This document shows positions 9,442 through 63,233 of a stretch of 64,000 bases of DNA, in pieces. This DNA is from Candidatus Omnitrophota bacterium (GTDB lineage Bacteria; Omnitrophota; Gorgyraeia; Zapsychrales; Zapsychraceae): NCBI GenBank assembly GCA_029261065.1, contig JAJDCB010000022.1:443-64442 (forward strand). Reading direction: 5' to 3'. The notes below the pieces were generated by a model. It made no database searches, had not been told where the DNA came from, and worked only from the letters and a program-made list of their open reading frames with translations. Each line of letters begins with the position of its first letter. Position 1 is the first letter of the stretch. A program made the position numbers and the translations under genes.

Positions 9442-10625
9442 GAAATAAGATAAGGGTATTTGGAGTTATCATTTTATGTATAACATCATCTGTTTATGCT
9501 CAAGAAGGACATAAAGGAAGTCATGTGGATGGTGTTCATGAGATGATTCCTGCTGTAACAGAGGACGGGGAGATATCTCATTACACCTGTGGCATGCATC
9601 CCAGCGTTAAGGTATCTGTCGAAAATTATGAGAATGGCGATACAAAATGTCCTATTTGTTTTATGCCGTTAACGGCTGTTAAATCATCAGGAATGCGGAG
9701 CCAAGCCTTTGATGAGAATGTCATTAGTAAAGTTGAAATAAAGGCTCGCGAACTAAAATTGGCGGGAGTGCAGACAGAAGTTGTTATCAAACGACAATTG
9801 TTTAAAGAGATAAGATCTGTTGGCACGGTTGCTTATGATCCTCAATTAGCCATTGCTCAAGATGAATTGGTTTCAGCCATTAGATCTTTAGACAAAGCTA
9901 AAACAGGTGCTGTTAGGGAAATTGCAGATCGTTCGCAATCAATGGTTGATTCATCCAAAAGAAAATTATTACTTTTAGGGTTAAGTGCGGAGCAAATTGC
10001 AGAATTGGAAAAATCAAAAGAAGTTCAAACAAATCTTATATTGCCCGGTGAGAAAATGTGGATTTATGGAGATATTTATGAATATGAATTGCCTTGGGTG
10101 AAAAAAGGATCTTACATTAAGGCTAAACCGATCGGGTTTGCGGGAGAAGAGTTTTATGGAGAGGTTGTTTCCATTAATCCTGTTATTGATCCGCGAACAC
10201 GCTCTGTTCGTTTTCGCGCGTTAATTGAGAACCCAGGTAGTAAGTTAAAGCCTGAGATGTATGTTGATGTTGAGATCCTGAGTAAGTATGTTGATCCCGA
10301 TGGTCAAGAGGAAGTTATCGCCTTACCTAAAAGTGCATTGCTTGATACCGGTCGTCGAAGAATTGTATGGGTTAATAAGGGGAATGGTCAGTTCGAAGGA
10401 CGAGCCGTTGTTGTTGGTCCAGAATCGGTGTCTCACTCCAATGAATTGCTTAAATTTTATCCTGTTCTTAAAGGAATCAAAGAAGGTGAGAAGGTTGTGA
10501 TTAAGGGAAACTTTCTGATTGATTCCCAAAGTCAAATTACAGGTGTCGTAGCTTCTTCCTTTGGAGGAACATTAGAACCAACAGAGCAAAAAGGTTCCAT
10601 GAAAGGAAGTCCTTCAGGCCATTAA
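9438..10625 (+). CDS. RND efflux periplasmic adaptor (CusB/CzcB-like) with an N-terminal heavy-metal-binding domain
   Basis: HYTCGMHP...KCPICFMPL matches the YHTCPMHP-type metal-binding motif of CusB/CzcB adaptors. Followed by the MFP beta-barrel/lipoyl fold. Confidence 0.8.
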   Translation: MRNKIRVFGVIILCITSSVYAQEGHKGSHVDGVHEMIPAVTEDGEISHYTCGMHPSVKVSVENYENGDTKCPICFMPLTAVKSSGMRSQAFDENVISKVEIKARELKLAGVQTEVVIKRQLFKEIRSVGTVAYDPQLAIAQDELVSAIRSLDKAKTGAVREIADRSQSMVDSSKRKLLLLGLSAEQIAELEKSKEVQTNLILPGEKMWIYGDIYEYELPWVKKGSYIKAKPIGFAGEEFYGEVVSINPVIDPRTRSVRFRALIENPGSKLKPEMYVDVEILSKYVDPDGQEEVIALPKSALLDTGRRRIVWVNKGNGQFEGRAVVVGPESVSHSNELLKFYPVLKGIKEGEKVVIKGNFLIDSQSQITGVVASSFGGTLEPTEQKGSMKGSPSGH

Positions 10626-10640
10626 GGAGCGGAGATTATT

Positions 10641-13600
10641 ATGATTAATAAAATTATAGAAGGTTGTCTAAGAAACAGATTTTTAGTGATCGCAGCCTTT
10701 GTTCTTGTTTTTGTTTTTGGTGTCTCATCCATGAAAAATACGCCGGTTGATGCTATTCCAGATATAGGAGAGTTGCAGGTCATTGTGTATGCGGAGTGGC
10801 CGGGAAGAAGTCCTCAAGATGTTGAAGACCAAGTTATTTATCCCCTAACAACAGGATTAATGGGGACACCAAAAGTTAAAGTTGTTCGATCTTCTGCGGG
10901 ATTTGGTTTTGGTCTGGTGAATATGATTTTTGAGGATGCGACGGATTATTATTGGGCGAGGACAAGAGTATTAGAAAGATTAGACTTTGCTAAGAAAGAT
11001 ATGCCTCAAGATGCGGTTGTAACGTTGGGACCAGATGCCACAGCACTTGGTCAAATTTTTTGGTACACCGTTGAAGGTAAAGATAAAAGTCTTGATGAAC
11101 TAAGGTCCATTCAAGATTGGTTTGTTAGATATCAATTAACATCCGTTGAAGGTGTGTCGGAGGTTGCCTCCGTTGGTGGTTATGTCAAACAATATCAAGT
11201 GGACGTTGATCCCAATAGGTTGAATGTTTTCAACGTTAGTCTTTTACATGTCATGGAGGCGATTAAGCTTTCTAATATTGATGTGGGCGCGAAAGTATTT
11301 GAAGAAGGTGGTGTTGAATATGTTGTGCGAGGATTAGGTTTCATTAAAAGTATCGAAGATATTGAACAAATTGTTATTGGGGTGCATCAGGGGACGCCGT
11401 TAACGATTAAAGATGTAGGTCAAGTGACACTTGGTCCTGACTTTCGACGAGGAGCTTTAGATAAAAATGGCCGTGAAGTCACAGGTGGCGTTGTCTTAAT
11501 GCGTTTTGGAGAAAATCCTTTAAAAGTTATTGAAAGGATTAAAACAAAGATCGAAGAGATTTCAGTTGGTTTGCCTGAAGGGGTCACAATTGTTCCTTTT
11601 TATGATCGCACAGGACTTATCAAAGATTCTATTCATACGTTAAGCAGTGCTTTGACACAAGAGATGATTATTACGGTGTTTGTTATTGCCGTATTTTTAT
11701 TTCATCTTGGGGGAAGTATTATTATTTCCATGGTTCTTCCTATAGGTGTTTTGATTGCCTTTATTTTGATGCGGCAAGTCGGTGTCGATGCCAACATTAT
11801 GTCGTTGGGAGGAATCGCAATCGCTATTGGTGTTATGGTCGACTCGGGCTGTGTTTTAGTTGAAAATATTTATCGGAAACTTGTCGAGAAACGAGAAGAA
11901 AGAAATGTTAATAAGTTATCTAGTGAAGAAAGATTAAACGTATGTATTGAGGCGTCCCAAGAAGTGGGAAGACCTGTTTTGTTTGCTTTGTTAACCACGA
12001 TTGTAAGTTTTGTGCCTGTTTTTGTTTTAACGGGACAAGCGGGGAGATTATTTAGCCCATTAGCTTACACAAAAACGTTTGCCATGATTGGAGCGGCTAT
12101 TATTGCACTAACGTTGCTGCCTACTCTGTGTTATTTTTTCTTAAGAGGACGATTGCGTGCCGTCAAAGATAACAAAACAGCAAAAATATTACATAAAAAC
12201 TATACACCCATGCTTCGATGGTCATTAAAGAATAAAAAAATAGTCGTTATTATTTCTCTTATTGTATTGGTCACAGGGTTGTCTTTAGGATCGATCATGA
12301 AACAAGAGTTTATGCCGCCTTTAAATGAAGGTGATTTGTTGTTTATGCCGGTTTTGATGCCGGGAGCATCATTAACCCAAGTTATGGAGGTGATGCAGAA
12401 ACAAAATATTATTATTAAAGATGAAATCCCAGAGGTTAAACAAGTCGTCGGAAAGCTTGGACGCGCTGAGACCGCGACAGATCCCGCTCCTGTCGTCATG
12501 ATTGAGAGTATTATCAATCTTAAAGACAAAAAGTATTGGCGAAAAGGGATGACGCGAGAAAAACTGATTGTCGAAATTCAAGAAAAAACAAAGATGCCAG
12601 GTGTGAGTCCCATTATGACACAACCGATACGTAATCGTATTGATATGTTAGCCACAGGAATCCAAACACCTGTTGGTATTAAAGTTTTTGGAGCTGATCT
12701 AAAAGAAATAGAAAAAATTGGGATTCAGTTAGAAGGTATTGTTGCTCAAGTTGATGGTGCTGTTGCCCCTTACGCGGAACGTATCGGTGGTCGCGCCTAT
12801 TTTGAAATGGACATTGATCGTGAACAAGCCGCTCGTTACGGCATTCATGTTCAAGATATTCAGGATTTAATCATGACAGGTATTGGTGGGATGAATGTCA
12901 CAACGACGGTGGAAGGTCGTGAGCGTTATCCTGTTCGCGTTCGGTATATGCGCGAGTTGCGTGATAATCCCGAAGATCTAAAACGTATTTTCGTCCCAAC
13001 CCGTTGGAAGTGGGAAAACGCACCGGGACCATTACAAATCCCGTTAGCTCAATTGGTTGACTTTAGAAAGGTTGCTGGACCTTCGATGATTTTATCTGAG
13101 AACACCATGCCGTATGCCCGTGTCTTTGTTAATGTTGATCAAAGTAAAGTGGGGCTTGTTGATTTTGTAAAAAAAGCTCAACAAAAAGTTGAAGAAGAAA
13201 TTAATCAAGGCCGTCTAAATATTCCTGCTGGATATTACATCAGTTGGTCAGGGCAGTTTGAAGCAGAGTTAGAATCAAGAAAGAAATTATTGCCTTCGAT
13301 GATGATTGCTTTACTTGTGATTCTCATTTTACTTTACATGGCGTTTAAGAATTTTAGAGTGTTAGGAATATTAGCGGGTGTCCTTCCGTTATCCTTGATG
13401 GGAGGGATTATTTTACTATTTGTTTTAAACTTTAAGTTTTCGACAGCGGTATGGGTTGGTTTTATAGCCTTGTTTGGTGTTGCGACCGATAATGCAGTTG
13501 TATTGCTTTCAACTCTTGAGAATTTATTTAAAGAAAGACTGCCCAAAACAGTAGAAGATATTAGAGCGACAGTTACTGAAGCTGGGTTATTAAGAGTTCG

Positions 13601-53312: not shown

Positions 53313-53542
53313 GTAGCTCTCTTGTGAAACATTTTTTGGTAATTCTGTTAGTTTTATCCTTTTCAAATACTTCCGTAATATAGAATTATAAACATATGCA
53401 GTTAATATAGTTATGAGCGATAACTATTTTGAAAGGGTTCCAGATAGCAAAATTTTACTGGTTTTTTTAAGGATTTTCCATATAATAGACTCTCCTTTAT
53501 ATGCGGCTTACAATTTTTTAACGTTAAGGAGGCAAATCAGTT

Positions 53543-53731
53543 ATGGCGGAATTCTGGGAACAACAATTGATGGATAGGCTTCTAAATCTGGCATTTGAAT
53601 ATCGTGTCAGCGAAAAAGAAATTATGCCTGCCAAACAAGTCAATGAAGTGATGGATTTTGTGAAGTTTCTCTTAAAGGAACAAGAACAAATAACCATCGA
53701 GAAGATAAAATCGTCAAAAATTAGTATTTAA
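53543..53731 (+). CDS. Small hypothetical protein heading the sulfur-carrier cluster
   Basis: 62 aa. Strong RBS taaggagg. 30 nt upstream of the ThiS-like gene. Confidence 0.4.
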   Translation: MAEFWEQQLMDRLLNLAFEYRVSEKEIMPAKQVNEVMDFVKFLLKEQEQITIEKIKSSKISI

Positions 53732-53760
53732 CGACCTGCAATAATATTTCAAAAGAATAC

Positions 53761-54000
53761 TTGAGGAGTTTTTTTATGAAAATTACTGTCAATGGCAAAG
53801 AAGAGACTATAGAGGGCGCAACTCTTTCTGTGAAGGGTCTTCTCAGTGCTTTAAATGTGTCCCAGCCGGATATGGTGTCTGTGCAACTTAACGGGGCCTT
53901 TGTAAACAAAGAAAATTATGAAACAACAACTGTCAAAGAGGCGGATACGGTTGATTTTCTTTATTTTATGGGTGGGGGAGCTCATATCTTTTCATTATGA
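53761..54000 (+). CDS. ThiS/MoaD-like sulfur-carrier protein with a C-terminal extension beyond the Gly-Gly (HcyS/CysO-like)
   Basis: MKITVNGKEETIEG...VQLNGAFV...DTVDFLYFMGGG then AHIFSL before the stop. The stop overlaps the metY start (ATGA). Confidence 0.75.
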   Translation: MRSFFMKITVNGKEETIEGATLSVKGLLSALNVSQPDMVSVQLNGAFVNKENYETTTVKEADTVDFLYFMGGGAHIFSL

Positions 54001-55235
54001 AAGATCCAGATTTTATAACTAAAATTTTACATAATCGTTTTTTAAAAAGCGATCCACATGGTTCAATGCATATGCCTGTGTATGAAAACGTGGCGTTTGA
54101 ATTTGAGAGTGCGGAAGATATCGAATTAGCCTTTCAACGTAAGAAGCCGGCACATATGTACTCGAGAATCAGCAACCCAACGGTAGAAGCCTTTGAACAA
54201 CGTATCAGGGCTGTCACCGATGCTTCGGGTGTTATTGCTGTTTCCTCCGGAATGGCTGCCATTACAAATGTAATCATGACGATTGCAGGTCAAGGCGATA
54301 ACATTATTACAACCAAACATCTTTTTGGAAATACGTATTCTTTATTTGAGAAGACCTTTAAAGATTGGGGTTTGGAAGTTCGATTTGCGGATTTAACACA
54401 AGCGGAATCTCTAAGCCAACTCATTGATGGGAAAACCAAAGCTATCTTTTTTGAAACCATTACCAATCCACAATTAGAAATTGTTGATATCAAGGCTTTA
54501 TCGGAGGTTGCGAAGAAAAATAATGTGTTATTGTTAGCAGACACAACATTAACTCCTCCGTATGTCTTTGAATCAAAGAAATTTGGTGTTGATGTCGAGG
54601 TTCTTTCAAGTACAAAATATATTTCCGGTGGTGCTACAACTGTTGGCGGTCTTATTATTGATAATGGTTTCTTTGATTGGAGCAAAAATGAGAAGTTAGC
54701 CGATGATGCCAAACAATTTGGTCCTTTTGCTTTTATTAGTCGACTCAGACGACAAGTTTATCGTAATTTAGGTTCATGCATGTCAGCGCATTGTGCTTTT
54801 TTACAAAGTGTTGGTTTAGAGACTCTTCCTTTGAGGGTTGATGTTTCTTGTGCGAATGCATTAACTGTTGCAAATTATTTAGAAGAAAATCCTTTAGTTA
54901 AGAAGGTCGATTATCCTGGATTACAAAGTTCACCTTATCATGATATTGCTGAGCAACAATTTGGAGATAGGTCTGGGGGACTTTTAACGTTTGATTTAGA
55001 ATCGAAGGACGTTTGTTTTAAGTTTATGAATAAACTAAAACTTATCAGACGTTCTACTAATCTAAATGATAATCGAACACTTATTCTGCATCCGGCGTCG
55101 ACCATTTTTTGTGAATATGATGATGCGCTTAAAGAAGAGATGCATGTTAGAGAAACAATGATAAGGCTGTCTGTTGGTATTGAGGGTGTGCATGATTTGA
55201 TGAATGATATCGAACAAGCGTTAGCGGTCGGATAA
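53997..55235 (+). CDS. metY: O-acetylhomoserine sulfhydrylase / Cys-Met-metabolism PLP-dependent enzyme (MetY-like)
   Basis: PF01053-type pattern. N-terminal MHMPVYENVAFEF. PLP-lysine motif SSTKYISGG. Confidence 0.85.
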   Translation: MKDPDFITKILHNRFLKSDPHGSMHMPVYENVAFEFESAEDIELAFQRKKPAHMYSRISNPTVEAFEQRIRAVTDASGVIAVSSGMAAITNVIMTIAGQGDNIITTKHLFGNTYSLFEKTFKDWGLEVRFADLTQAESLSQLIDGKTKAIFFETITNPQLEIVDIKALSEVAKKNNVLLLADTTLTPPYVFESKKFGVDVEVLSSTKYISGGATTVGGLIIDNGFFDWSKNEKLADDAKQFGPFAFISRLRRQVYRNLGSCMSAHCAFLQSVGLETLPLRVDVSCANALTVANYLEENPLVKKVDYPGLQSSPYHDIAEQQFGDRSGGLLTFDLESKDVCFKFMNKLKLIRRSTNLNDNRTLILHPASTIFCEYDDALKEEMHVRETMIRLSVGIEGVHDLMNDIEQALAVG

Positions 55236-55253
55236 TTTTTAAATAGCATGAAA

Positions 55254-55356
55254 GATACAAGTAACAAGATACAAGACACAAAAAATAATCAATGACCAAA
55301 AAGAAAATAACCAAAGAGTTTGATTATTCAGTCATTGGATATTGATTATTTTTTGC
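55254..55356. repeat. MITE-like palindromic repeat, copy A (acaagNNacaag heptamer-like units plus the caaaaaataatcaa...aataaccaaa hairpin)
   Basis: Close match to the reverse complement of the right arm of copy B at 56326..56451. Internal inverted repeat caaaaaataatcaatgac / gtcattgg..attgattattttttg. Confidence 0.6.
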
Positions 55357-55360
55357 CAAA

Positions 55361-55435
55361 GCGTCAAGAGACGCTGGTTCGGCCGTAGGCCGAATAACTT
55401 GCCCCGCCTTTGGCGGGGTCCCGCTAACAGCGGGA
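55361..55435. repeat. Array of four consecutive GC-rich stem-loops (gcgtc..gacgc; ttcggcc..ggccgaa; gccccgcc..ggcggggtc; cccgct..agcggg)
   Basis: Read directly from the sequence. Strongly GC-rich relative to the local AT-rich context. REP-like or a structured RNA. Confidence 0.5.
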
Positions 55436-55498
55436 TACCTTGTACCTTGGTTATTTTATAGAATTCTGACAATATCTACTTTCGGTTGAGGAGACAAT

Positions 55499-56305
55499 AT
55501 GGATTTTAATGAAGAACAATTAGAGCGTTATAGCCGTCATATCATTTTGCAAGATGTGAGTATTGAAGGTCAGCAGAAGATTATGGAAGGTAAGGTGCTT
55601 ATTATAGGAATGGGAGGCTTAGGTGCGCCTGTTGCTCTTTATTTAGCCGCCGCTGGTGTTGGGACGCTTGGGCTCGTTGATGGTGATGTTGTTGATTTAA
55701 GTAATTTGCAACGACAAGTCATTCATTTTACGCCTGATGTTGGAAAGCCAAAGGTTCTTTCTGCTAAAGAGAAGATTGCTCAAATTAATCCGGATGTTAA
55801 GGTTGTTACGCATCAAGAGTTAGCTTTGGCTAACAATATTGCTGATTTAATTAAGGACTATGATTTCATTATTGATGGAACGGATAACTTTCCTGCCAAG
55901 TTTTTAGTGAACGATGCTTGCGTGTTTGGCAAAAAGCCATTTTCACATGGGGGTATTTTAAGATTTGATGGACAAACCATGACGCATGTTCCAGGGGAAG
56001 CCTGTTATCGATGTGTTTTTGGTTTTGCGCCACCCTTAAATGCTGTTCCGTCATGTTCACAAGCAGGTGTTCTTGGAGCGATTGCCGGAATGCTTGGAAC
56101 GATTCAAGCAACCGAAGCGCTTAAGTTTTTAGTCGGTAAAGGAGAGTTGTTAACCAATCGGTTGTTAGTTTTTAATGCGTTAAACATGAATTTTAGAACA
56201 GTGAATTTGAAAAAAAATGCGAACTGCCCTGTGTGTGGAGACAATCCTTCGATTACGGAGTTGAGGGATGAGGAGCAGAAGGCTTGTGATATTACGCAGA
56301 GGTAA
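55499..56305 (+). CDS. ThiF/MoeB/HesA-family E1-like adenylyltransferase with a C-terminal zinc tetrad
   Basis: Nucleotide-binding GMGGLGAPVALYLAAAGVG. CxxC...CxxC (CYRC, CPVC). Confidence 0.85.
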   Translation: MDFNEEQLERYSRHIILQDVSIEGQQKIMEGKVLIIGMGGLGAPVALYLAAAGVGTLGLVDGDVVDLSNLQRQVIHFTPDVGKPKVLSAKEKIAQINPDVKVVTHQELALANNIADLIKDYDFIIDGTDNFPAKFLVNDACVFGKKPFSHGGILRFDGQTMTHVPGEACYRCVFGFAPPLNAVPSCSQAGVLGAIAGMLGTIQATEALKFLVGKGELLTNRLLVFNALNMNFRTVNLKKNANCPVCGDNPSITELRDEEQKACDITQR

Positions 56306-56471: not shown

Positions 56472-56867
56472 ATGAAAATTCAAAAACAAATTTTAGACAA
56501 TATTATTAAGCACGCCAAAACCGGCTTGCCTTTAGAAATTTGCGGTTATCTCGCATCAAAAGACGGCGTGGTTATCAAGCATTACGAGCTTACCAACATT
56601 GATCAAAGCGAAGAGCATTTTTCTTTTGATCCAGCAGAACAATTTGCCACCGTTAAAGATGCTCGGGCCAATGGATTAGAATTATCAGCTGTTTATCACA
56701 GTCATCCTGTTACACCCGCGAGGCCATCACAAGAAGATATCAAGTTGGCGTATGATCCAAACATTAGTTATGTGATTGTTTCTATGGCTGAGCGAGAAGG
56801 TGATGTGAAGTCGTTTAAGATTCGTGAGGGTGTTGTTGAGAAGGAAGAGATTGAGGTTGTTAGTTAA
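56472..56867 (+). CDS. JAMM/MPN+ metalloprotease (Mec+/HcyD-like)
   Basis: EICGYL plus JAMM motif HSHPvtparpSqeD (H-x-H-x7-S-x2-D). Confidence 0.85.
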   Translation: MKIQKQILDNIIKHAKTGLPLEICGYLASKDGVVIKHYELTNIDQSEEHFSFDPAEQFATVKDARANGLELSAVYHSHPVTPARPSQEDIKLAYDPNISYVIVSMAEREGDVKSFKIREGVVEKEEIEVVS

Positions 56868-57013: not shown

Positions 57014-59473
57014 ATGATTAAGAAATCAGCTAATGCATTAAAGACTCATACGTTACCAGATAATCTAGGTGATGAAATAAACGTGCTTGAAACTTATGTT
57101 GAGAGGTTTAAGAAAGATGACCTTTCCTTAATGGAATTTAAAGTTCAGCGCGTTCCATTTGGTGTCTATGAGCAACGTAAAAAAGACACTTATATGATTC
57201 GTATTCGTTGTGCAGGTGCCTGTGTTCGCCCTGACCAACTTAAAAAAATTGCAGAGATTTCTCAAGTTCATGGAGCTGATTACATCCATTTAACGTCTCG
57301 CCAAGAAATCCAATTACATTATGTTTTAGTTGATAGTATTGTTCCTGTTATGTGGGAACTTAAAGCCGCTGATTTGGCTTCTCGTGGAGGAGGAGGAAAT
57401 ACGGTTCGAAATATTATGGCTCAAGAAGATGCTGGTATCGCCGAAGATGAGGCTTTTGATGTAACGCCTTATGCCATTGAGTTAACGTCACGTTTAGTTG
57501 TAGAGCCGGATTCTTGGAACTTACCAAGAAAGTTTAAGTTTGCTTTCTCTGGATCTTCCGATGATCGCGGTTATGCAACTCTTCATGATGTTGGTTACAT
57601 CGCCAAAATCAAAGACGGTGTAAAAGGTTTTACTGTTTATGTCGCTGGAGGAATGGGAGCAAAAGCGATGTTAGGAAATCTTTTGTTTGATTTTATTCCT
57701 GATACGGAAGTTTACAATGTTGCTAAGGCCACAAAAAATCTTTTTTACAAAAATGGTAATAGAAAAAATAAACATGCCTCACGCCTACGTTTTTTGTGGA
57801 AACAATTAGGTGGAGATGAGTTTAAACGTATCTTTTTTGAAGAATACGAAGCTGTAAAGAAAGAAAACTATCTACCTCTAGCTGTAAAAGATATTGATAA
57901 TGTTGGTATTGACCCGAATTCGGATATTGAACAACCAGCGGATCAAAAAGACTATGAGTTGTGGAAAAAGCGTTTTGTTCAATCACAAAGACAAGAAGGG
58001 CTTAATGCGATTATTTTACCTATTCATTTAGGTCATGTTGATAATGACAAAGCGATTAAACTTGCTGAGTTTTTGATGCCATTTGGTGAAAACGTTATCC
58101 GTATTCGAAAAGATCAAAACTTTTTGATCAGAAATATTATGGATAAATATCTACCGAATCTTTATAACATGTTGAAAGATACATTTGATAACTTTAATAG
58201 ACCATTTATCATTGATAAAGTTTTAGCCTGTGCCGGTGCCTCAACATGCCAATTGGGTATTTGTTTATCACCTGGAGCAGCTACTGCAACCAAAAGATAT
58301 TTAGAAACTTGTGATCTTGATTTGGATGCGGTTTCAGATGCCAAAGTTAACATCTCAGGATGTCCAAACTCTTGTGGTCAGCACCATGTGGCTGATTTAG
58401 GTTTCTTTGGAAAGGTAGCGCGCCGAGGAGATAAGGTTCATCCAGCATATAATGTCTTAGTCGGTTCTCTTGTCAAAGAAGGCGAAACCGAATTTGCTCA
58501 AAAAGTAGGAGAGATTGCCGCACGCGATATGCCTTTTATTACAAAAGCTGTTTTTAAATCTTATTTAGGAAAAAGAGCGAAATACGAAACCTTTAGAGAT
58601 TATATGCGTAGTGATGAAGGTAAAGAAGACGTAAAAGCTCTTTGTGTGAAATATAAATCGGACATTCCTGATTATGAAGTGGATAAAAATTATTATCTTG
58701 ATTGGGGAACTGATAAAACGTTTTCAGTAGCTGAACGTGGTAAGGGTGAATGTTCAGCCGGGATTTTTGATTTGATTGAAAGTGATTTAGGTCACATTCA
58801 ACAAGCCAAAAAACTTCTTGAGGAAATTAATGAAAATGGTGGTGATATTGGGCAAAAGCAAACGCTGTTAAGAGACGTCATTTATTATAGCGCTCGAATC
58901 CTTTTGATTTCAAAGGCGCTTGAGCCGCAGAATGAAAAAGAAGTTTACAGTTATTTCCGTGAGCATTTTATCAATACGGGATTAATTGCTGCTTCCTTTG
59001 ATGAGATCATTAAATTAGCGGAAGCCGGAGATTTTAAGACGTTGATCGAAAAAGAAGATCAAGTGTTTGCCTTGGCAGATCGTCTTAAATACCTTTATGA
59101 TGTCATGGATAGTGCCTTTCGATATAAACTTAAAGAGGGCGACAGTCTTCATAACGATAAGGTTGATTTTATTCCTGTGGTCCATCAAGCGGCAAGTGCG
59201 TCTGCCAAAGCTAAGACAGCCTCAACGACAGCAACAAAAACCGCAGATCCTGCTTTAGTCAAAGATTTTCGAGGCGTGGGTTGTCCAATGAACTTTGTGA
59301 AGACAAAGATGGAGTTGGCAAAACTCAAGTCTAAAGATATTCTTGAAATATGGTTAGACGATGGCCAACCGATTGAAAATGTCCCTGGTTCCGTTCGTGA
59401 AGAAGGGCATACTGTTTTAGAACAACAAAAGACGGATGAAGGTTATTGGTCCGTTGTTATAGAGAAGCAATAA
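57014..59473 (+). CDS. Sulfite/nitrite reductase-family siroheme-[4Fe-4S] enzyme fused to a C-terminal TusA-like sulfur-carrier domain
   Basis: NIR_SIR ferredoxin-like and 4Fe-4S modules with Cys clusters CAGASTCQLGIC and SGCPNSCGQHH. The C-terminal 70 aa (FRGVGCPMNFVKTKMELAKL...WSVVIEK) match the TusA CPxP-type motif. Confidence 0.8.
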   Translation: MIKKSANALKTHTLPDNLGDEINVLETYVERFKKDDLSLMEFKVQRVPFGVYEQRKKDTYMIRIRCAGACVRPDQLKKIAEISQVHGADYIHLTSRQEIQLHYVLVDSIVPVMWELKAADLASRGGGGNTVRNIMAQEDAGIAEDEAFDVTPYAIELTSRLVVEPDSWNLPRKFKFAFSGSSDDRGYATLHDVGYIAKIKDGVKGFTVYVAGGMGAKAMLGNLLFDFIPDTEVYNVAKATKNLFYKNGNRKNKHASRLRFLWKQLGGDEFKRIFFEEYEAVKKENYLPLAVKDIDNVGIDPNSDIEQPADQKDYELWKKRFVQSQRQEGLNAIILPIHLGHVDNDKAIKLAEFLMPFGENVIRIRKDQNFLIRNIMDKYLPNLYNMLKDTFDNFNRPFIIDKVLACAGASTCQLGICLSPGAATATKRYLETCDLDLDAVSDAKVNISGCPNSCGQHHVADLGFFGKVARRGDKVHPAYNVLVGSLVKEGETEFAQKVGEIAARDMPFITKAVFKSYLGKRAKYETFRDYMRSDEGKEDVKALCVKYKSDIPDYEVDKNYYLDWGTDKTFSVAERGKGECSAGIFDLIESDLGHIQQAKKLLEEINENGGDIGQKQTLLRDVIYYSARILLISKALEPQNEKEVYSYFREHFINTGLIAASFDEIIKLAEAGDFKTLIEKEDQVFALADRLKYLYDVMDSAFRYKLKEGDSLHNDKVDFIPVVHQAASASAKAKTASTTATKTADPALVKDFRGVGCPMNFVKTKMELAKLKSKDILEIWLDDGQPIENVPGSVREEGHTVLEQQKTDEGYWSVVIEKQ

Positions 59474-59505: not shown

Positions 59506-59826
59506 ATGGTATTTTTTCTAAAATACAAATCCATTAATGCGCAACAAGCAAAGAAGCTGCTTGATGAGAATCAAATAACATTAGTGGATACTCGCGAGCA
59601 TGAATCTTACCAAAAGTCTCATATTCCTGGGGCGATACATATTCACGATAATAATATTCATCAGCTGGATAGTTCAATAGATAAGACAAAGCCTATCCTT
59701 TGTTATTGTTATAAAGGAAAGGGAAGTCGATTAGTCTGCAAAAAATTATATAAGGCTGGGTTTCGCTTGGTATTTAACTTAAAGGGTGGATACGAGTCAT
59801 GGGAGATTGTATTTTCCACATTATGA
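59506..59826 (+). CDS. Single-domain rhodanese (sulfurtransferase)
   Basis: Rhodanese fold with the active-site loop CYCYKGKGS. The start may lie downstream of 59506. Confidence 0.7.
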   Translation: MVFFLKYKSINAQQAKKLLDENQITLVDTREHESYQKSHIPGAIHIHDNNIHQLDSSIDKTKPILCYCYKGKGSRLVCKKLYKAGFRLVFNLKGGYESWEIVFSTL

Positions 59827-61304
59827 AAAACACTAATAAACTCAAAAAGTACTATGCTAATATCGATTATATAAGATTGAATCCATTCTTTTTAATATTC
59901 TTTATTATTACCCTCTGGGCCTCCGTCAGCTTTGCAGACGCGGTTTACCTTCGACGAGGTGCTAAAATTATTGGAGAAATTGTTAGATATAACAATGAAG
60001 GCGTCAGCATTCAAGGGCAGGAAATTCTTTATTCTTATCCGTGGAATCATGTTGATCACATAGAGATTTTTTCTTTGAGGGATAAATTAAAGAAAAAGGA
60101 GCAGGTGCAGTTGTCTAAACATAAGGAAGATATTAGTCATTCAAAGAATCTTTATGCGCGAGCTCGTTCTTTAGTGAAAATACCAGCGCCGGGTTTTGGA
60201 CGCAAAACAAAATATTCCCTTTATGATCTTCAGAAGATTCTCTTGGGTTTTGATAAAGAAGACCCTCAAGTGTTGGCTTTATTGTTATTCAATTATGAGG
60301 CCATTGATTTATTTAAGAAAGCAATTGATCATTCGAGTGATAGGGATAGTGGGTACATTAGAAAGTTCCAACCGCTCTTTACTCTTCTTTTAATTCAAGC
60401 CCAAGATTATTTAGTGAATGGTCAAACAGCTAAGGCCGAGGAAAACTATAGATCTGCTGCTAAATTCATAAGGTTTCTTTGGCAAAGAGAAAATGCAAAA
60501 TATTCTTTCAATTCTTCTTCAATAAATGATCCAGCAACCTTGGACCGATGTCTCGATGATTTCTCACTCGAAATTTTGAAGGCCATGCAAGCCAATCAAC
60601 TGAGTAAAACATTTTATGAAAGCATTATCAAAGAATTGACAACGGTTAAAATTAGTGCAGAATCAGGAAAAATCCATCTGGCAGATGTATATCTTTATAC
60701 CGACAAGGAAATTAAAAAGGAAATGAGGGGTCTTGACCCGAGACTTTGGGACTCCGTTGAGGAGTACGCGCTCTTTTTTATGATCTTGGCAGATACGCCT
60801 CAACAGCAAAAAGAAATGAAAGAAGAGTTGCAAAGTTATTTTAAAGACCTTGATGCCAAAGATTCATCGGTATTTTTTCCAACATCAAACCACTATATTG
60901 CCGGTTCCATTCGCGCCTATTACCGTATTGCCGCAAAACATCACAATCTTTTATTGGCCGCAGCGATTCAAGCTTATCGAATGGAGTACAAAGATTTTCC
61001 GGAAAGCTTAAACGATTTGATTCCGAAATACCTGTCAGAGCTCCCGGTTGATCCATTTCGTAATTTTGAGCCAGTCACGTATTTAAAGAAGGAGAATGAT
61101 TTTTTACTCTACAGTATTGGACCTGATCTCATTGACCAAAAGGGGAAAATTGTGAGCCGTGATTATGGCAATGGTTGGGACAGTGTTGGTGATATTCTTT
61201 GGGGAAAAGATTATTCATTAAGAAGATTAGATACAAAGACAATCCCAGAAGAAGAGAAGGTCCCGGCAGATACTGTGCTTCCCGGCGGGCGCCGTACTCG
61301 CTAA
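59823..61304 (+). CDS. Membrane-anchored hypothetical protein with a C-terminal region resembling a type II secretion GspG-like pseudopilin domain
   Basis: ATGA overlap with the rhodanese gene. N-terminal TM. C-terminal VDPFRNFEPVTYLKKENDFLLYSIGPDLIDQKGK..GNGWDSVGDILW resembles the GspG DPW...Y.L.S.G.DG motif. Confidence 0.45.
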   Translation: MKNTNKLKKYYANIDYIRLNPFFLIFFIITLWASVSFADAVYLRRGAKIIGEIVRYNNEGVSIQGQEILYSYPWNHVDHIEIFSLRDKLKKKEQVQLSKHKEDISHSKNLYARARSLVKIPAPGFGRKTKYSLYDLQKILLGFDKEDPQVLALLLFNYEAIDLFKKAIDHSSDRDSGYIRKFQPLFTLLLIQAQDYLVNGQTAKAEENYRSAAKFIRFLWQRENAKYSFNSSSINDPATLDRCLDDFSLEILKAMQANQLSKTFYESIIKELTTVKISAESGKIHLADVYLYTDKEIKKEMRGLDPRLWDSVEEYALFFMILADTPQQQKEMKEELQSYFKDLDAKDSSVFFPTSNHYIAGSIRAYYRIAAKHHNLLLAAAIQAYRMEYKDFPESLNDLIPKYLSELPVDPFRNFEPVTYLKKENDFLLYSIGPDLIDQKGKIVSRDYGNGWDSVGDILWGKDYSLRRLDTKTIPEEEKVPADTVLPGGRRTR

Positions 61305-61351: not shown

Positions 61352-62377
61352 TTATTTAGAGTATTTTTTGATGAGAGTATCGATATCGGTTTGGTGAAGG
61401 TCTAAATCTTTTGTTTTAAGAAACTCTTCGGTATAGAGTTTGGAGAAGGAACGTTCTCCTAGATCACAGCTGAAAGTAACAATGCGTTTGCCTGGACCAT
61501 TTTCAATAGCAATTTTTAGGGCACCTGCAAGATTAAGAGCAGAGCTACTTCCTAATAAAATACCGTCGTGTTGTCTGACATATTGAGAGATGGTTACTAA
61601 GTCTTGATCGGGGAGGCTAAAGGCTTCATCAATCTGGGCTTTGGCAAAGTTAGCAACTAAACGCATAATCCCAATGCCTTCGGTGATCGATCCGCCTTCA
61701 GATTTAAATTCTTTGGTATGAACATAAGAGCAGAGTCCGGAACCACCTGGATCAACAAGAACGACTTTTAGGTTTGGTAGTTTTTCTTTAAGGAAAGAGG
61801 AGCAGCCTCCAATTGTGCCACCAGTTCCAGCGACGGAGACAAGATAATCAAGTTTTCCATCCGTTTGTTCCAAGATTTCAGGGCCAGTTCGTGTATAATG
61901 AGCTTTGTAGTTGCTTAAGTTTTCAAATTGATTCGCCCACCAGTATTTGTCAGAATCTTCTTCAGCTAAACGGCGAGCGGTGTGATAGAAATGGTTTTCG
62001 TTTTTAAAAGGGCAGGGATCAACCAATTTTAATTGGGCGCCATGAAGTTCGATCATACGTTGTTTTTCAATGGCTTGGTTGTTGGGCATAACGGCTAAGC
62101 AGTCATACCCTAAAGCCTTGGCCACTAAAGCGAGACCAATACCGGTGTTACCCGCTGTTCCTTCAACAATGGTCATACCTTTTTTTAGCTGACCAGACTC
62201 AATCGCATCAAGCGTCATTTGAAGGGCGGCGCGATCTTTAATGGAGCCACCGGGGTTTAGATGTTCGCATTTGACAAAGATGTCGCAACCAGTAAGTTCA
62301 CTAAGGGAAGGCACACGCAGTAACGGCGTGTTACCGATAAGTTCTGATAGATTTTTTGCTGGGGTGGATGTATTCAT
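61352..62377 (-). CDS. Cysteine synthase / cystathionine beta-synthase-family PLP enzyme (CysK/CysM-like)
   Basis: PALP motifs NPGGSIKDRAAL and GTAGNTGIGLA. Start set at the internal Met (62377) because the longest ORF (to 62443) would overlap the divergent gene start. Confidence 0.75.
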   Translation of the reverse strand: MNTSTPAKNLSELIGNTPLLRVPSLSELTGCDIFVKCEHLNPGGSIKDRAALQMTLDAIESGQLKKGMTIVEGTAGNTGIGLALVAKALGYDCLAVMPNNQAIEKQRMIELHGAQLKLVDPCPFKNENHFYHTARRLAEEDSDKYWWANQFENLSNYKAHYTRTGPEILEQTDGKLDYLVSVAGTGGTIGGCSSFLKEKLPNLKVVLVDPGGSGLCSYVHTKEFKSEGGSITEGIGIMRLVANFAKAQIDEAFSLPDQDLVTISQYVRQHDGILLGSSSALNLAGALKIAIENGPGKRIVTFSCDLGERSFSKLYTEEFLKTKDLDLHQTDIDTLIKKYSK

Positions 62378-62441
62378 AAGATTATGAATCAAAGTATATC
62401 TTGGAAGGGAAATCTGGTCAAGTTTATATTGAAAGGGGATC

Positions 62442-63233
62442 ATGGATAAATATCAGATTCTTGGAATTGTGCTTTTTACACTTATTCTTCTCGCGGAGAA
62501 CTTCTTTCCCTATAGAAAGCATTATAAGCACCGGATGCGACATTATGGACGTAACACTGTTTTATCAGCCGTGAATGGATTGATTATGGGATTGTCTGGG
62601 GCCTATATCACCGTGCATGTCTTTTTATGGGTGGCTGAGAATAAGATAGGAATGCTTAATCAATTTGAAGCCTCATTTGTTATTAAAGCTATCTTGGCTT
62701 TTTTGATCTTTGATGCGTGGACTTATTTCTGGCATCGGATCAATCATGTGATTCCTTTTCTGTGGCGATTTCATCGTGTGCACCACAATGATCCGGCGAT
62801 GGATGTTAGTACTGCGCTACGATTCCATCCAATCGAAATATTGTTATCAGCCATTATTAATCTCGGTATCATTGCGGCCTTTGGGATTCGCCTGGAGCAT
62901 CTCATCGTCTATAAACTTATTTTTCATACCAATGTTTTTTTCCATCACAGTAACGTCGCTATTTCTGATTCCGTTGATAAGATGTTACGTTACATCATCG
63001 TGACACCCAATATGCATAAAGTGCATCACTCCTGCAAACAAGAAGAAACAGATTCAAACTTTGCGAGTATTCTCTCATGGTGGGATCGTTTATTTGGTTC
63101 TTATTGTGAACGTGATCCAAAGTCGATTATATTTGGATTAGACTCTTATATGGAAGAGCGATGGCAAACCGTTAAGGGGTTGTTTAAGTTGCCGTTTGCA
63201 GGGCCTTGTAAGAAAAAAGAAGATAACGGTTAA
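62442..63233 (+). CDS. Fatty-acid hydroxylase / sterol-desaturase-family membrane di-iron enzyme
   Basis: Histidine boxes HRINH, HRVHHND and HKVHHS. Confidence 0.8.
   Translation: MDKYQILGIVLFTLILLAENFFPYRKHYKHRMRHYGRNTVLSAVNGLIMGLSGAYITVHVFLWVAENKIGMLNQFEASFVIKAILAFLIFDAWTYFWHRINHVIPFLWRFHRVHHNDPAMDVSTALRFHPIEILLSAIINLGIIAAFGIRLEHLIVYKLIFHTNVFFHHSNVAISDSVDKMLRYIIVTPNMHKVHHSCKQEETDSNFASILSWWDRLFGSYCERDPKSIIFGLDSYMEERWQTVKGLFKLPFAGPCKKKEDNG

Follow-up and report, generated by a model that had tools for sequence, protein, structure and literature searches.

The window analysed here is a stretch of 64,000 nucleotides from contig JAJDCB010000022.1 of a Candidatus Omnitrophota bacterium, and the gene in question is sir-tusA (57014..59473, + strand), which encodes a predicted sulfite reductase of 819 residues and ends at a TAA stop codon (59471-59473). 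The extent of this open reading frame (ORF) matches exactly the one given in an initial annotation, in which the product was described as a siroheme/4Fe-4S reductase fused to a C-terminal TusA module. The protein consists of a sulfite reductase core (aa 1-545, 57014..58648), a previously unannotated middle domain (aa 546-712, 58649..59149), a flexible tether rich in Ala, Ser, Thr and Lys (aa 713-747, 59150..59254) and the TusA domain itself (aa 748-819, 59255..59470), all encoded on the + strand. The gene stands last in a same-strand block that also holds genes for a ThiS-like carrier protein, the sulfhydrylase MetY, an E1 adenylyltransferase and a JAMM metalloprotease.

Domain structure of the reductase

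The NIR_SIR_ferr, NIR_SIR and TusA hidden Markov models, by which the initial annotation had proposed to check the assignment, all match the protein in Pfam. NIR_SIR_ferr (E 7.5e-24) and NIR_SIR (E 4.3e-41) match two stretches each, giving a core of two NIR_SIR_ferr/NIR_SIR repeats, and the same domains were recovered from an independent gene call of the reductase. The cysteine clusters expected of a siroheme/4Fe-4S enzyme were found as C406-x5-C412 ... C450-x3-C454, four [4Fe-4S]/siroheme ligands whose codons span 58229..58375 on the + strand and which are invariant in an alignment of 51 full-length homologs. Conservation was also counted from alignment columns covering about 300-347 sequences (50%-identity representatives, the 80 related loci described below and Wolinella). 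By this count the ligands are kept in 296/297 (C406), 296/296 (C412), 302/302 (C450) and 302/302 (C454) sequences. The anion site is formed by R63 (260/261), R132 (261/262) and the pair K173 and K175 (263/263), and its segment LPRKFK pairs with LPRKYK of NirA and differs from LPRKWN of plant nitrite reductase.

An AlphaFold model of the whole protein reached a predicted local distance difference test score (pLDDT) of 86.7 and a predicted template modelling score (pTM) of 0.84. The closest solved fold of the core is NirA of Mycobacterium tuberculosis (1ZJ8; E 1.4e-28, TMt 0.77), followed among fold and sequence matches by plant nitrite and sulfite reductases (maize SiR) and by E. coli SiRHP; with DsrA/B the core shares a fold superfamily (E about 1e-5). 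NirA resembles the core in fold and in its LPRK-x-K anion site but has neither the middle domain nor TusA, and the Cys of its Tyr-Cys cross-link is missing in the window protein (GGGGNTVRN versus EACGDCPRV). Because the K-x-K pair is invariant in 263/263 sequences and the gene context is one of sulfur assimilation, the only reasonable reading of the predicted product is an assimilatory siroheme/[4Fe-4S] sulfite reductase of the NirA/Sir type.

The C-terminal TusA module with its Cys-Pro motif, claimed in the initial annotation, is supported concordantly by the Pfam match, by register alignment and by fold superposition. Pfam TusA matches aa 751-818 over profile positions 4-70 of 70, at E 3.2e-19 and with a score of 69 bits where the cut-off is 28.6, which is far beyond chance. 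Failure to align with TusA/SirA, or loss of the conserved Cys, would have spoken against the module; the region does align, and in the motif GCPMNFVKTKMEL the Cys757-Pro758 pair (Cys757 codon 59282-59284, within GCPMNF) stands in register with the Cys-Pro of TM0983 (1JDQ) and YedF (1JE3). In the model this domain can be overlaid on E. coli TusA (3LVJ_C, TMt 0.86) and on 3HZ7 (TMt 0.81), and its secondary structure over aa 748-817 (strand-helix-strand-helix-strand-strand) is that of a two-layer alpha/beta sandwich. Cys757 is conserved in 345/347, Pro758 in 347/347 and Asn760 in 345/346 sequences. We conclude from these comparisons that the domain is a genuine member of the TusA/SirA family (PF01206). 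In the model it hangs on a tether that is flexible and variable: residues 713-742 are disordered (pLDDT <50), and the segment aligned to residues 700-748 in the 51 homologs is 14 to 74 residues long and shows no sequence conservation.

The middle domain, of about 170 residues, matches no Pfam family and has no solved relative by sequence. Modelled alone it forms a confident helical bundle (pLDDT 87), for which a fold search returned only weak HEPN-like matches (E at least 0.07). The bundle is preceded by a loop carrying GECSAGxFDL at the start of the domain, in which Cys580 (codon 58751-58753) is kept in 333/335 and Glu579 in 334/335 sequences. Cys580 and Cys757 are thus conserved as strictly as the cluster ligands (compare Cys406, 296/297). 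When the middle and TusA domains were searched together against 1.84 billion representatives, 372 clusters were found at E <= 1e-10, and the full-length matches were all reductases of 750-840 residues; within this search, the sequence matches place the middle domain as an appendage of this reductase only. A few proteins of 250-310 residues (P0133, P0146, P0165, P0206, P0248 and P0267) consist of the middle domain and TusA alone and may be truncated gene calls or free-standing modules; in one of them, P0206, Ser replaces the TusA Cys.

Distribution and gene neighbourhoods of the fusion

A scan of one genome per species found a relative in at least 568 genomes, and the loci analysed are the best 80 of these, all of which align as far as residue 818 or 819. 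Core, middle and TusA parts lie in a single ORF in 80/80 loci, which answers the question, raised in the initial annotation, of whether orthologs in related genomes carry the fusion. The 80 loci come from more than a dozen phyla (Omnitrophota, Bacteroidota, Margulisbacteria, Calditrichota, Desulfobacterota, Spirochaetota, Elusimicrobia, Acidobacteriota, Verrucomicrobiota, Planctomycetota, Fibrobacterota, Chlorobiota, Actinomycetota and others). Among the 120 matches listed, all full-length proteins carry the three Pfam domains, and the named relatives are mostly Omnitrophota with identities of up to 69%. Since all 80 loci, more than a dozen phyla and the Sir of Wolinella share it, the TusA fusion is the normal form of this enzyme and not a peculiarity of this genome; the rarity that the initial annotation had implied does not hold. 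Some of these reductases already bear the NCBI label 'sulfurtransferase TusA family protein', and our searches of the open-access literature found no paper describing a TusA-sulfite reductase fusion.

The genes upstream of the reductase follow the order ThiS-MetY-E1-JAMM-Sir, with JAMM present in 69 of the 80 loci, E1 in 67, MetY in 58 and ThiS in 55; absences fall mostly at contig ends. An unbiased census of neighbours added CysH/CysD (39 loci), CysK (36), a siroheme methylase (33), an Rrf2 regulator (29) and CysN (28). A PALP gene occurs in 36-39/80 loci, and those of the CysK type often lie just upstream of ThiS/hcyS. The carriers of the other loci end in FMGGG followed by a variable tail of 1-8 residues. 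The E1 partners are 265-322 residues long and have no rhodanese domain in 64/66 loci. This type of neighbourhood was described by Iyer, Burroughs and Aravind (2006, PMC1779556), who noted that its E1 has no rhodanese domain and that SirA/TusA is 'always' present, and who predicted that SirA/TusA takes the role of the rhodanese.

Several loci show further rearrangements. In 14 loci (for example L057:7332-7829, L022:7428-7949 and L013:2588-3070) a DsrE2-like sulfur-carrier gene (Pfam DrsE_2), with an invariant Cys in the motif Y-x-C-E-M-S-M, stands between the E1 and JAMM genes; most of these loci belong to Bacteroidota, the others to Chlorobiota, Fibrobacteria, Spirochaetota and one Marinamargulisbacteria genome. 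In 3 loci, from Desulfobacterales, Sedimentisphaerales and Pirellulales, a single ORF encodes the JAMM protein joined in frame to the N-terminal end of reductase-TusA (929-942 aa; L037:140-2926, L054:7578-10367 and L060:7518-10343). In three others (L008, L014 and L018), ThiS is fused in frame to MetY upstream of E1 (486-493 aa), as it is in the protein P0306, with FMGGG at the junction; by analogy with a ubiquitin precursor, the carrier would need to be excised by the JAMM protease. Taken together, the JAMM-Sir-TusA and ThiS-MetY fusions suggest that these proteins work in physical contact. Four Acidobacteriota loci (L028, L029, L035 and L038, at about 10300-12600) hold a second gene set 3' of the reductase-TusA gene, with a PALP cysteine synthase, a weakly matching JAMM protein and an E1-rhodanese fusion, which resembles the mycobacterial CysO system.

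The operon and its relation to the Wolinella HcyS pathway

The first gene of the block in the window encodes an hcyS-like carrier of the ThiS family (53776..54000, + strand; Pfam ThiS E 9e-11, NCBIfam thiS E 2e-16). Its start at ATG 53776 agrees with homologs (the ORF list had placed it at TTG 53761), and its product ends in ...FLYFMGGG plus a six-residue tail, AHIFSL. The start of metY, encoding an O-acetylhomoserine sulfhydrylase (53997..55235, + strand; Pfam Cys_Met_Meta_PP E 3e-107), overlaps the hcyS stop by 4 nucleotides. These genes are followed by an hcyF-like gene for a 268-residue E1 adenylyltransferase of the ThiF/MoeB family (55499..56305, + strand; Pfam ThiF E 3e-80), in which Pfam finds the ThiF domain alone, with no rhodanese domain, and by an hcyD-like gene for a JAMM/JAB metalloprotease (56472..56867, + strand; Pfam Prok-JAB E 1.5e-24) with the motif HSHPVTPARPSQED. 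The E1 and ThiS-like proteins, which the initial annotation had proposed as recipients of the reduced sulfur, are therefore encoded in the same operon as the reductase.

This gene set is that of the protein-thiocarboxylate route to homocysteine of Wolinella succinogenes (cited in PMC5764234, PMC6225789 and PMC8191291), a route still missing from the main pathway databases in 2017 (PMC5764234). We located the Wolinella locus (L081) via an identical protein, P0270, and a sequence rebuilt from the 3RI6 alignment. It encodes HcyS, HcyF and HcyD, then a Sir of 764 residues in which Pfam finds NIR_SIR_ferr, NIR_SIR (twice) and TusA, and then siroheme synthase. The HcyS/HcyF/HcyD/MetY pathway of Wolinella was reportedly worked out by Krishnamoorthy and Begley in the Journal of the American Chemical Society (J Am Chem Soc) in 2011.

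The window reductase is 40% identical to Wolinella Sir over 813 residues (591 bits), TusA motif included, and the two proteins share the core, the middle domain with GECSAG, the tether and a TusA domain with GVxCPMNFVKTKM. Its partners are likewise close to those of Wolinella (HcyS 51%, MetY 48%, HcyF 62% and HcyD 57% identity), and the H-x-H...S-x-x-D motif is intact in both the window JAMM protein and Wolinella HcyD. The best solved relative of the window MetY is 3RI6, the Wolinella MetY, at 420 bits compared with 294 for the next, a conventional MetY, which assigns it by sequence to the thiocarboxylate-using Wolinella subtype. Both organisms have the same five-gene set and a carrier with an extra C-terminal tail, and such tails fit the known need for a JAMM protease to unmask the Gly-Gly end. 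There are differences as well. The Wolinella cluster adds CysH, CysD and CysN upstream and siroheme synthase, and its MetY is divergent, whereas the window MetY lies inside the operon; the carrier tail is AHIFSL in the window and A in Wolinella (...FMGGGA); and the window has a downstream rhodanese and, at 38.8-64 kb, no sulfate-activation genes. Overall, these similarities mark all five operon proteins as predicted orthologs of the Wolinella set, and the window reductase is very probably the Sir of the HcyS protein-thiocarboxylate route to homocysteine and methionine.

A non-coding gap of about 460 nucleotides (53313-53775), containing a 62-residue ORF (53543..53731), lies 5' of the ThiS-like gene, and one of 263 nucleotides (55236-55498) separates metY from the E1 gene. 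A cysteine synthase A of the CysK type is encoded on the - strand (61352..62443; NCBIfam 448 bits against a cut-off of 387); at its N-terminus it is about 30 residues longer than solved CysK proteins. Rfam found no riboswitch or other RNA over the whole window, none upstream of the operon, and no tRNA or rRNA in the 64 kb. Long ORFs lie nearly all on the + strand, the G+C content is about 36-39%, and GC skew is positive in each 2-kb bin (0.08-0.34) over positions 1-64000.

A GlpE-like single-domain rhodanese (59506..59826, + strand; Pfam Rhodanese E 1.3e-22), whose catalytic Cys is in register with that of GlpE (1GMX), follows the reductase. The initial annotation had described it as immediately following and translationally coupled. 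It is indeed adjacent; the coupling falls away, however, given that a spacer of 32 nucleotides with no overlap and no evident Shine-Dalgarno sequence separates TAA 59471-59473 from ATG 59506. The rhodanese stop instead overlaps by 4 nucleotides the start of a gene for a 493-residue protein (59823..61304), and the two genes (59506-61304) look like a unit of their own. No Pfam or NCBIfam family matches the 493-residue protein, whose N-terminal segment is hydrophobic. A rhodanese match occurs in just 5/80 related loci, in 4 of which, all Acidobacteriota, it is fused to a second E1, and within these 80 loci it is absent from the closest Omnitrophota relatives. Because of this distribution and of its coupling to the downstream gene, we treat the rhodanese as a lineage-specific neighbour of doubtful relevance to the system, and its proposed role as a partner of the reductase is not sustained.

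A possible sulfur relay and its alternatives

By orthology to Wolinella, the route would run as follows. HcyD, the JAMM protease, would trim the tail of HcyS and expose its Gly-Gly end; HcyF, the E1, would adenylate the trimmed end; and the reductase core would reduce sulfite at its siroheme/[4Fe-4S] centre. The sulfur would end as a thiocarboxylate on HcyS, from which MetY would add it to O-acetylhomoserine, with HcyD then releasing homocysteine.

For the loading of HcyS, we propose that the middle domain (Cys580) and the tethered TusA (Cys757) may act as a built-in sulfur relay, which would replace the rhodanese domain carried by other sulfur-carrier E1s. Sulfide from the siroheme would open a Cys580-Cys757 disulfide and leave a persulfide on Cys757; the TusA arm would swing to the E1-HcyS adenylate and form an acyl-disulfide; and Cys580 would resolve this acyl-disulfide, freeing the HcyS thiocarboxylate and re-forming the disulfide, with a net redox change of zero. 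The disulfide cycle is put forward as the simplest scheme, and as the likeliest chemistry for such a relay, because a persulfide is S(0), the reductase makes S(2-) and two cysteines are present. It mirrors the chemistry of ThiI and MOCS3, in which a persulfide works together with a resolving cysteine. Taken as a whole, a Sir of the HcyS route with a built-in C-terminal relay is the explanation that we favour, with some reserve; for the relay role of TusA and Cys580 taken separately, the case for and the case against are close to balanced.

A catalytic role of the TusA Cys is favoured because Cys757 is so strictly conserved (345/347), sits on a flexible tether and has as its partner an E1 with no rhodanese domain. 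The wider argument that the appended domains carry sulfur rests on the conservation of both Cys580 and Cys757, on the tether, on the E1, on the recruitment of DsrE-like proteins and on the Rosetta-stone fusions. Other E1s dedicated to sulfur carriers do carry a rhodanese domain, unlike the E1 here (Iyer et al. 2006, PMC1779556). The mycobacterial CysO-MoeZ-Mec-CysM route likewise combines an E1 and a JAMM protease with a thiocarboxylate carrier of the ThiS-like kind, but it leads to cysteine rather than homocysteine, and a rhodanese domain forms part of its E1 (MoeZ). The E. coli TusA and DsrE-TusA relays offer a parallel in fold (TMt 0.86) and Cys-Pro motif, and DsrE2-like genes occur in 14 of the related operons; these proteins, however, exist on their own and are loaded with S(0) by a cysteine desulfurase or through sulfur oxidation, whereas the window TusA is tethered to an enzyme producing fully reduced sulfide. 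Actinobacterial sulfite reductase-ThiS fusions, compared by description (PMC1779556), also place a sulfur-transfer component at the C-terminus in the same type of neighbourhood, with the difference that there the carrier itself is fused and here it is the TusA transfer domain.

Several observations weigh against the relay. Six-electron reduction yields S(2-) and not the S(0) of a persulfide, which is a redox mismatch for the direct persulfide hand-off to a carrier suggested in the initial annotation, although such a hand-off is plausible. The Cys580 loop was modelled with moderate confidence (pLDDT about 66-70). CysK, a user of free sulfide, belongs to the operon in 36/80 loci and is also encoded close by in the window, and for this reason the reductase probably also releases sulfide. 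The 2011 abstract of Krishnamoorthy and Begley is said to derive the HcyS thiocarboxylate from 'bisulfide produced by Sir', and on that scheme a relay would not be chemically required. Finally, no sulfate-activation genes (CysD/N, CysH) were found among the window ORFs at 38.8-64 kb.

The strongest alternative is that the reductase simply releases bisulfide, which would react unaided with the HcyS acyl-adenylate and supply CysK as well. The TusA and middle domains would then carry no sulfur; instead they would help the enzyme dock to the E1, regulate it or protect it. We rate this as possible but rather unlikely. It would match the reported Wolinella scheme, it would account for a co-operonic cysteine synthase of the CysK type in 36/80 loci, and sulfide is the natural product of the six-electron reduction; moreover, the acyl-adenylates of ThiS-like proteins (CysO and HcyS) react with sulfide in vitro. 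A docking or regulatory module, however, needs no two cysteines conserved like metal ligands, nor a Cys-Pro motif that stays aligned with that of catalytic TusA proteins, and free sulfide would explain neither why the E1 partners consistently have no rhodanese domain nor why an extra DsrE2-like carrier has been recruited in 14 loci.

A more remote alternative departs from the disulfide relay at the siroheme itself. Cys580, Cys757 or both could attack siroheme-bound sulfur after four electrons, as in an assimilatory analogue of DsrAB-DsrC, giving a persulfide or a Cys-S-Cys trisulfide with no free sulfide on that branch. To our knowledge, DsrAB-DsrC is the only system whose siroheme passes sulfur straight to a protein cysteine. 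The resemblance is a speculative one and concerns function only: both systems pair a siroheme reductase of the same fold superfamily with two cysteines, of which at least one is on a mobile arm, here two strictly conserved cysteines outside the core. Capture of this kind would also solve the redox mismatch with no need for a pre-formed disulfide. Yet DsrAB is heteromeric and respiratory, DsrC is unrelated to the middle and TusA domains in sequence or fold, and no DsrC-like domain was found. As far as we know, the six-electron reduction runs to completion in the assimilatory enzymes with this fold that have been studied, and the presence of CysK in the operon implies release of sulfide. We therefore regard DsrC-like capture as improbable.

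Less probable still is a role on the substrate side, in which TusA and rhodanese together would handle thiosulfate or sulfane sulfur. Cleavage of thiosulfate by the rhodanese would give a persulfide, which TusA would receive and pass to HcyS, and sulfite, which the core would reduce, and both sulfur atoms would be assimilated. The gene adjoining that of the reductase does encode a GlpE-like thiosulfate sulfurtransferase whose catalytic Cys is intact, and the TusA-family proteins YeeD/TsuB and DsrE3-TusA handle thiosulfate (PDB 8K1R, matched here; PMC4175335). The rhodanese is nonetheless confined to 5/80 loci, with none in the closest Omnitrophota, its coupling is with the unrelated gene 3' of it rather than with the reductase, and CysD/N/H in related loci point to sulfate as the source.

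That the enzyme reduces nitrite, as the names 'NirA' and 'nitrite reductase' on its top NCBIfam and PDB sequence matches might suggest, deserves practically no credence: every NCBIfam match falls far under its cut-off, M. tuberculosis 'NirA' is despite its name a sulfite reductase, the whole gene neighbourhood is one of sulfur assimilation, and the anion-site alignment, with K-x-K as in sulfite reductases against the K-x-N of plant nitrite reductases and with K173 and K175 invariant in 263/263 sequences, speaks against this identity.

A stricter version of the favoured relay is self-contained sulfur channelling, in which protein cysteines would pick up sulfur at or near the siroheme and deliver it directly, as a persulfide, to the E1-bound carrier, with no free sulfide on that branch. 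Capture could occur either through the Cys580-Cys757 disulfide or by DsrC-like take-up of a partly reduced intermediate. We advance this reading only tentatively, and doubt it more than we do the relay in general.

Implications for sulfur assimilation

The reductase gene is an ordinary member of a known pathway and leaves the picture of sulfur assimilation unchanged. The thiocarboxylate route to homocysteine has been demonstrated in one organism, and is kept as a syntenic block in the best 80 loci. New in this account are the anatomical detail of the middle domain and, within it, a previously unremarked invariant cysteine, Cys580. These features bear on the loading of sulfur onto the carrier protein, which is the least understood step of the route. 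If the channelling reading is true, the system would be the first assimilatory counterpart of DsrAB-DsrC, present in hundreds of species and many phyla. The tethered TusA domain and the invariant Cys580 lead in any case to a testable hypothesis, namely that reduced sulfur may be passed on to its carrier without the release of toxic sulfide.

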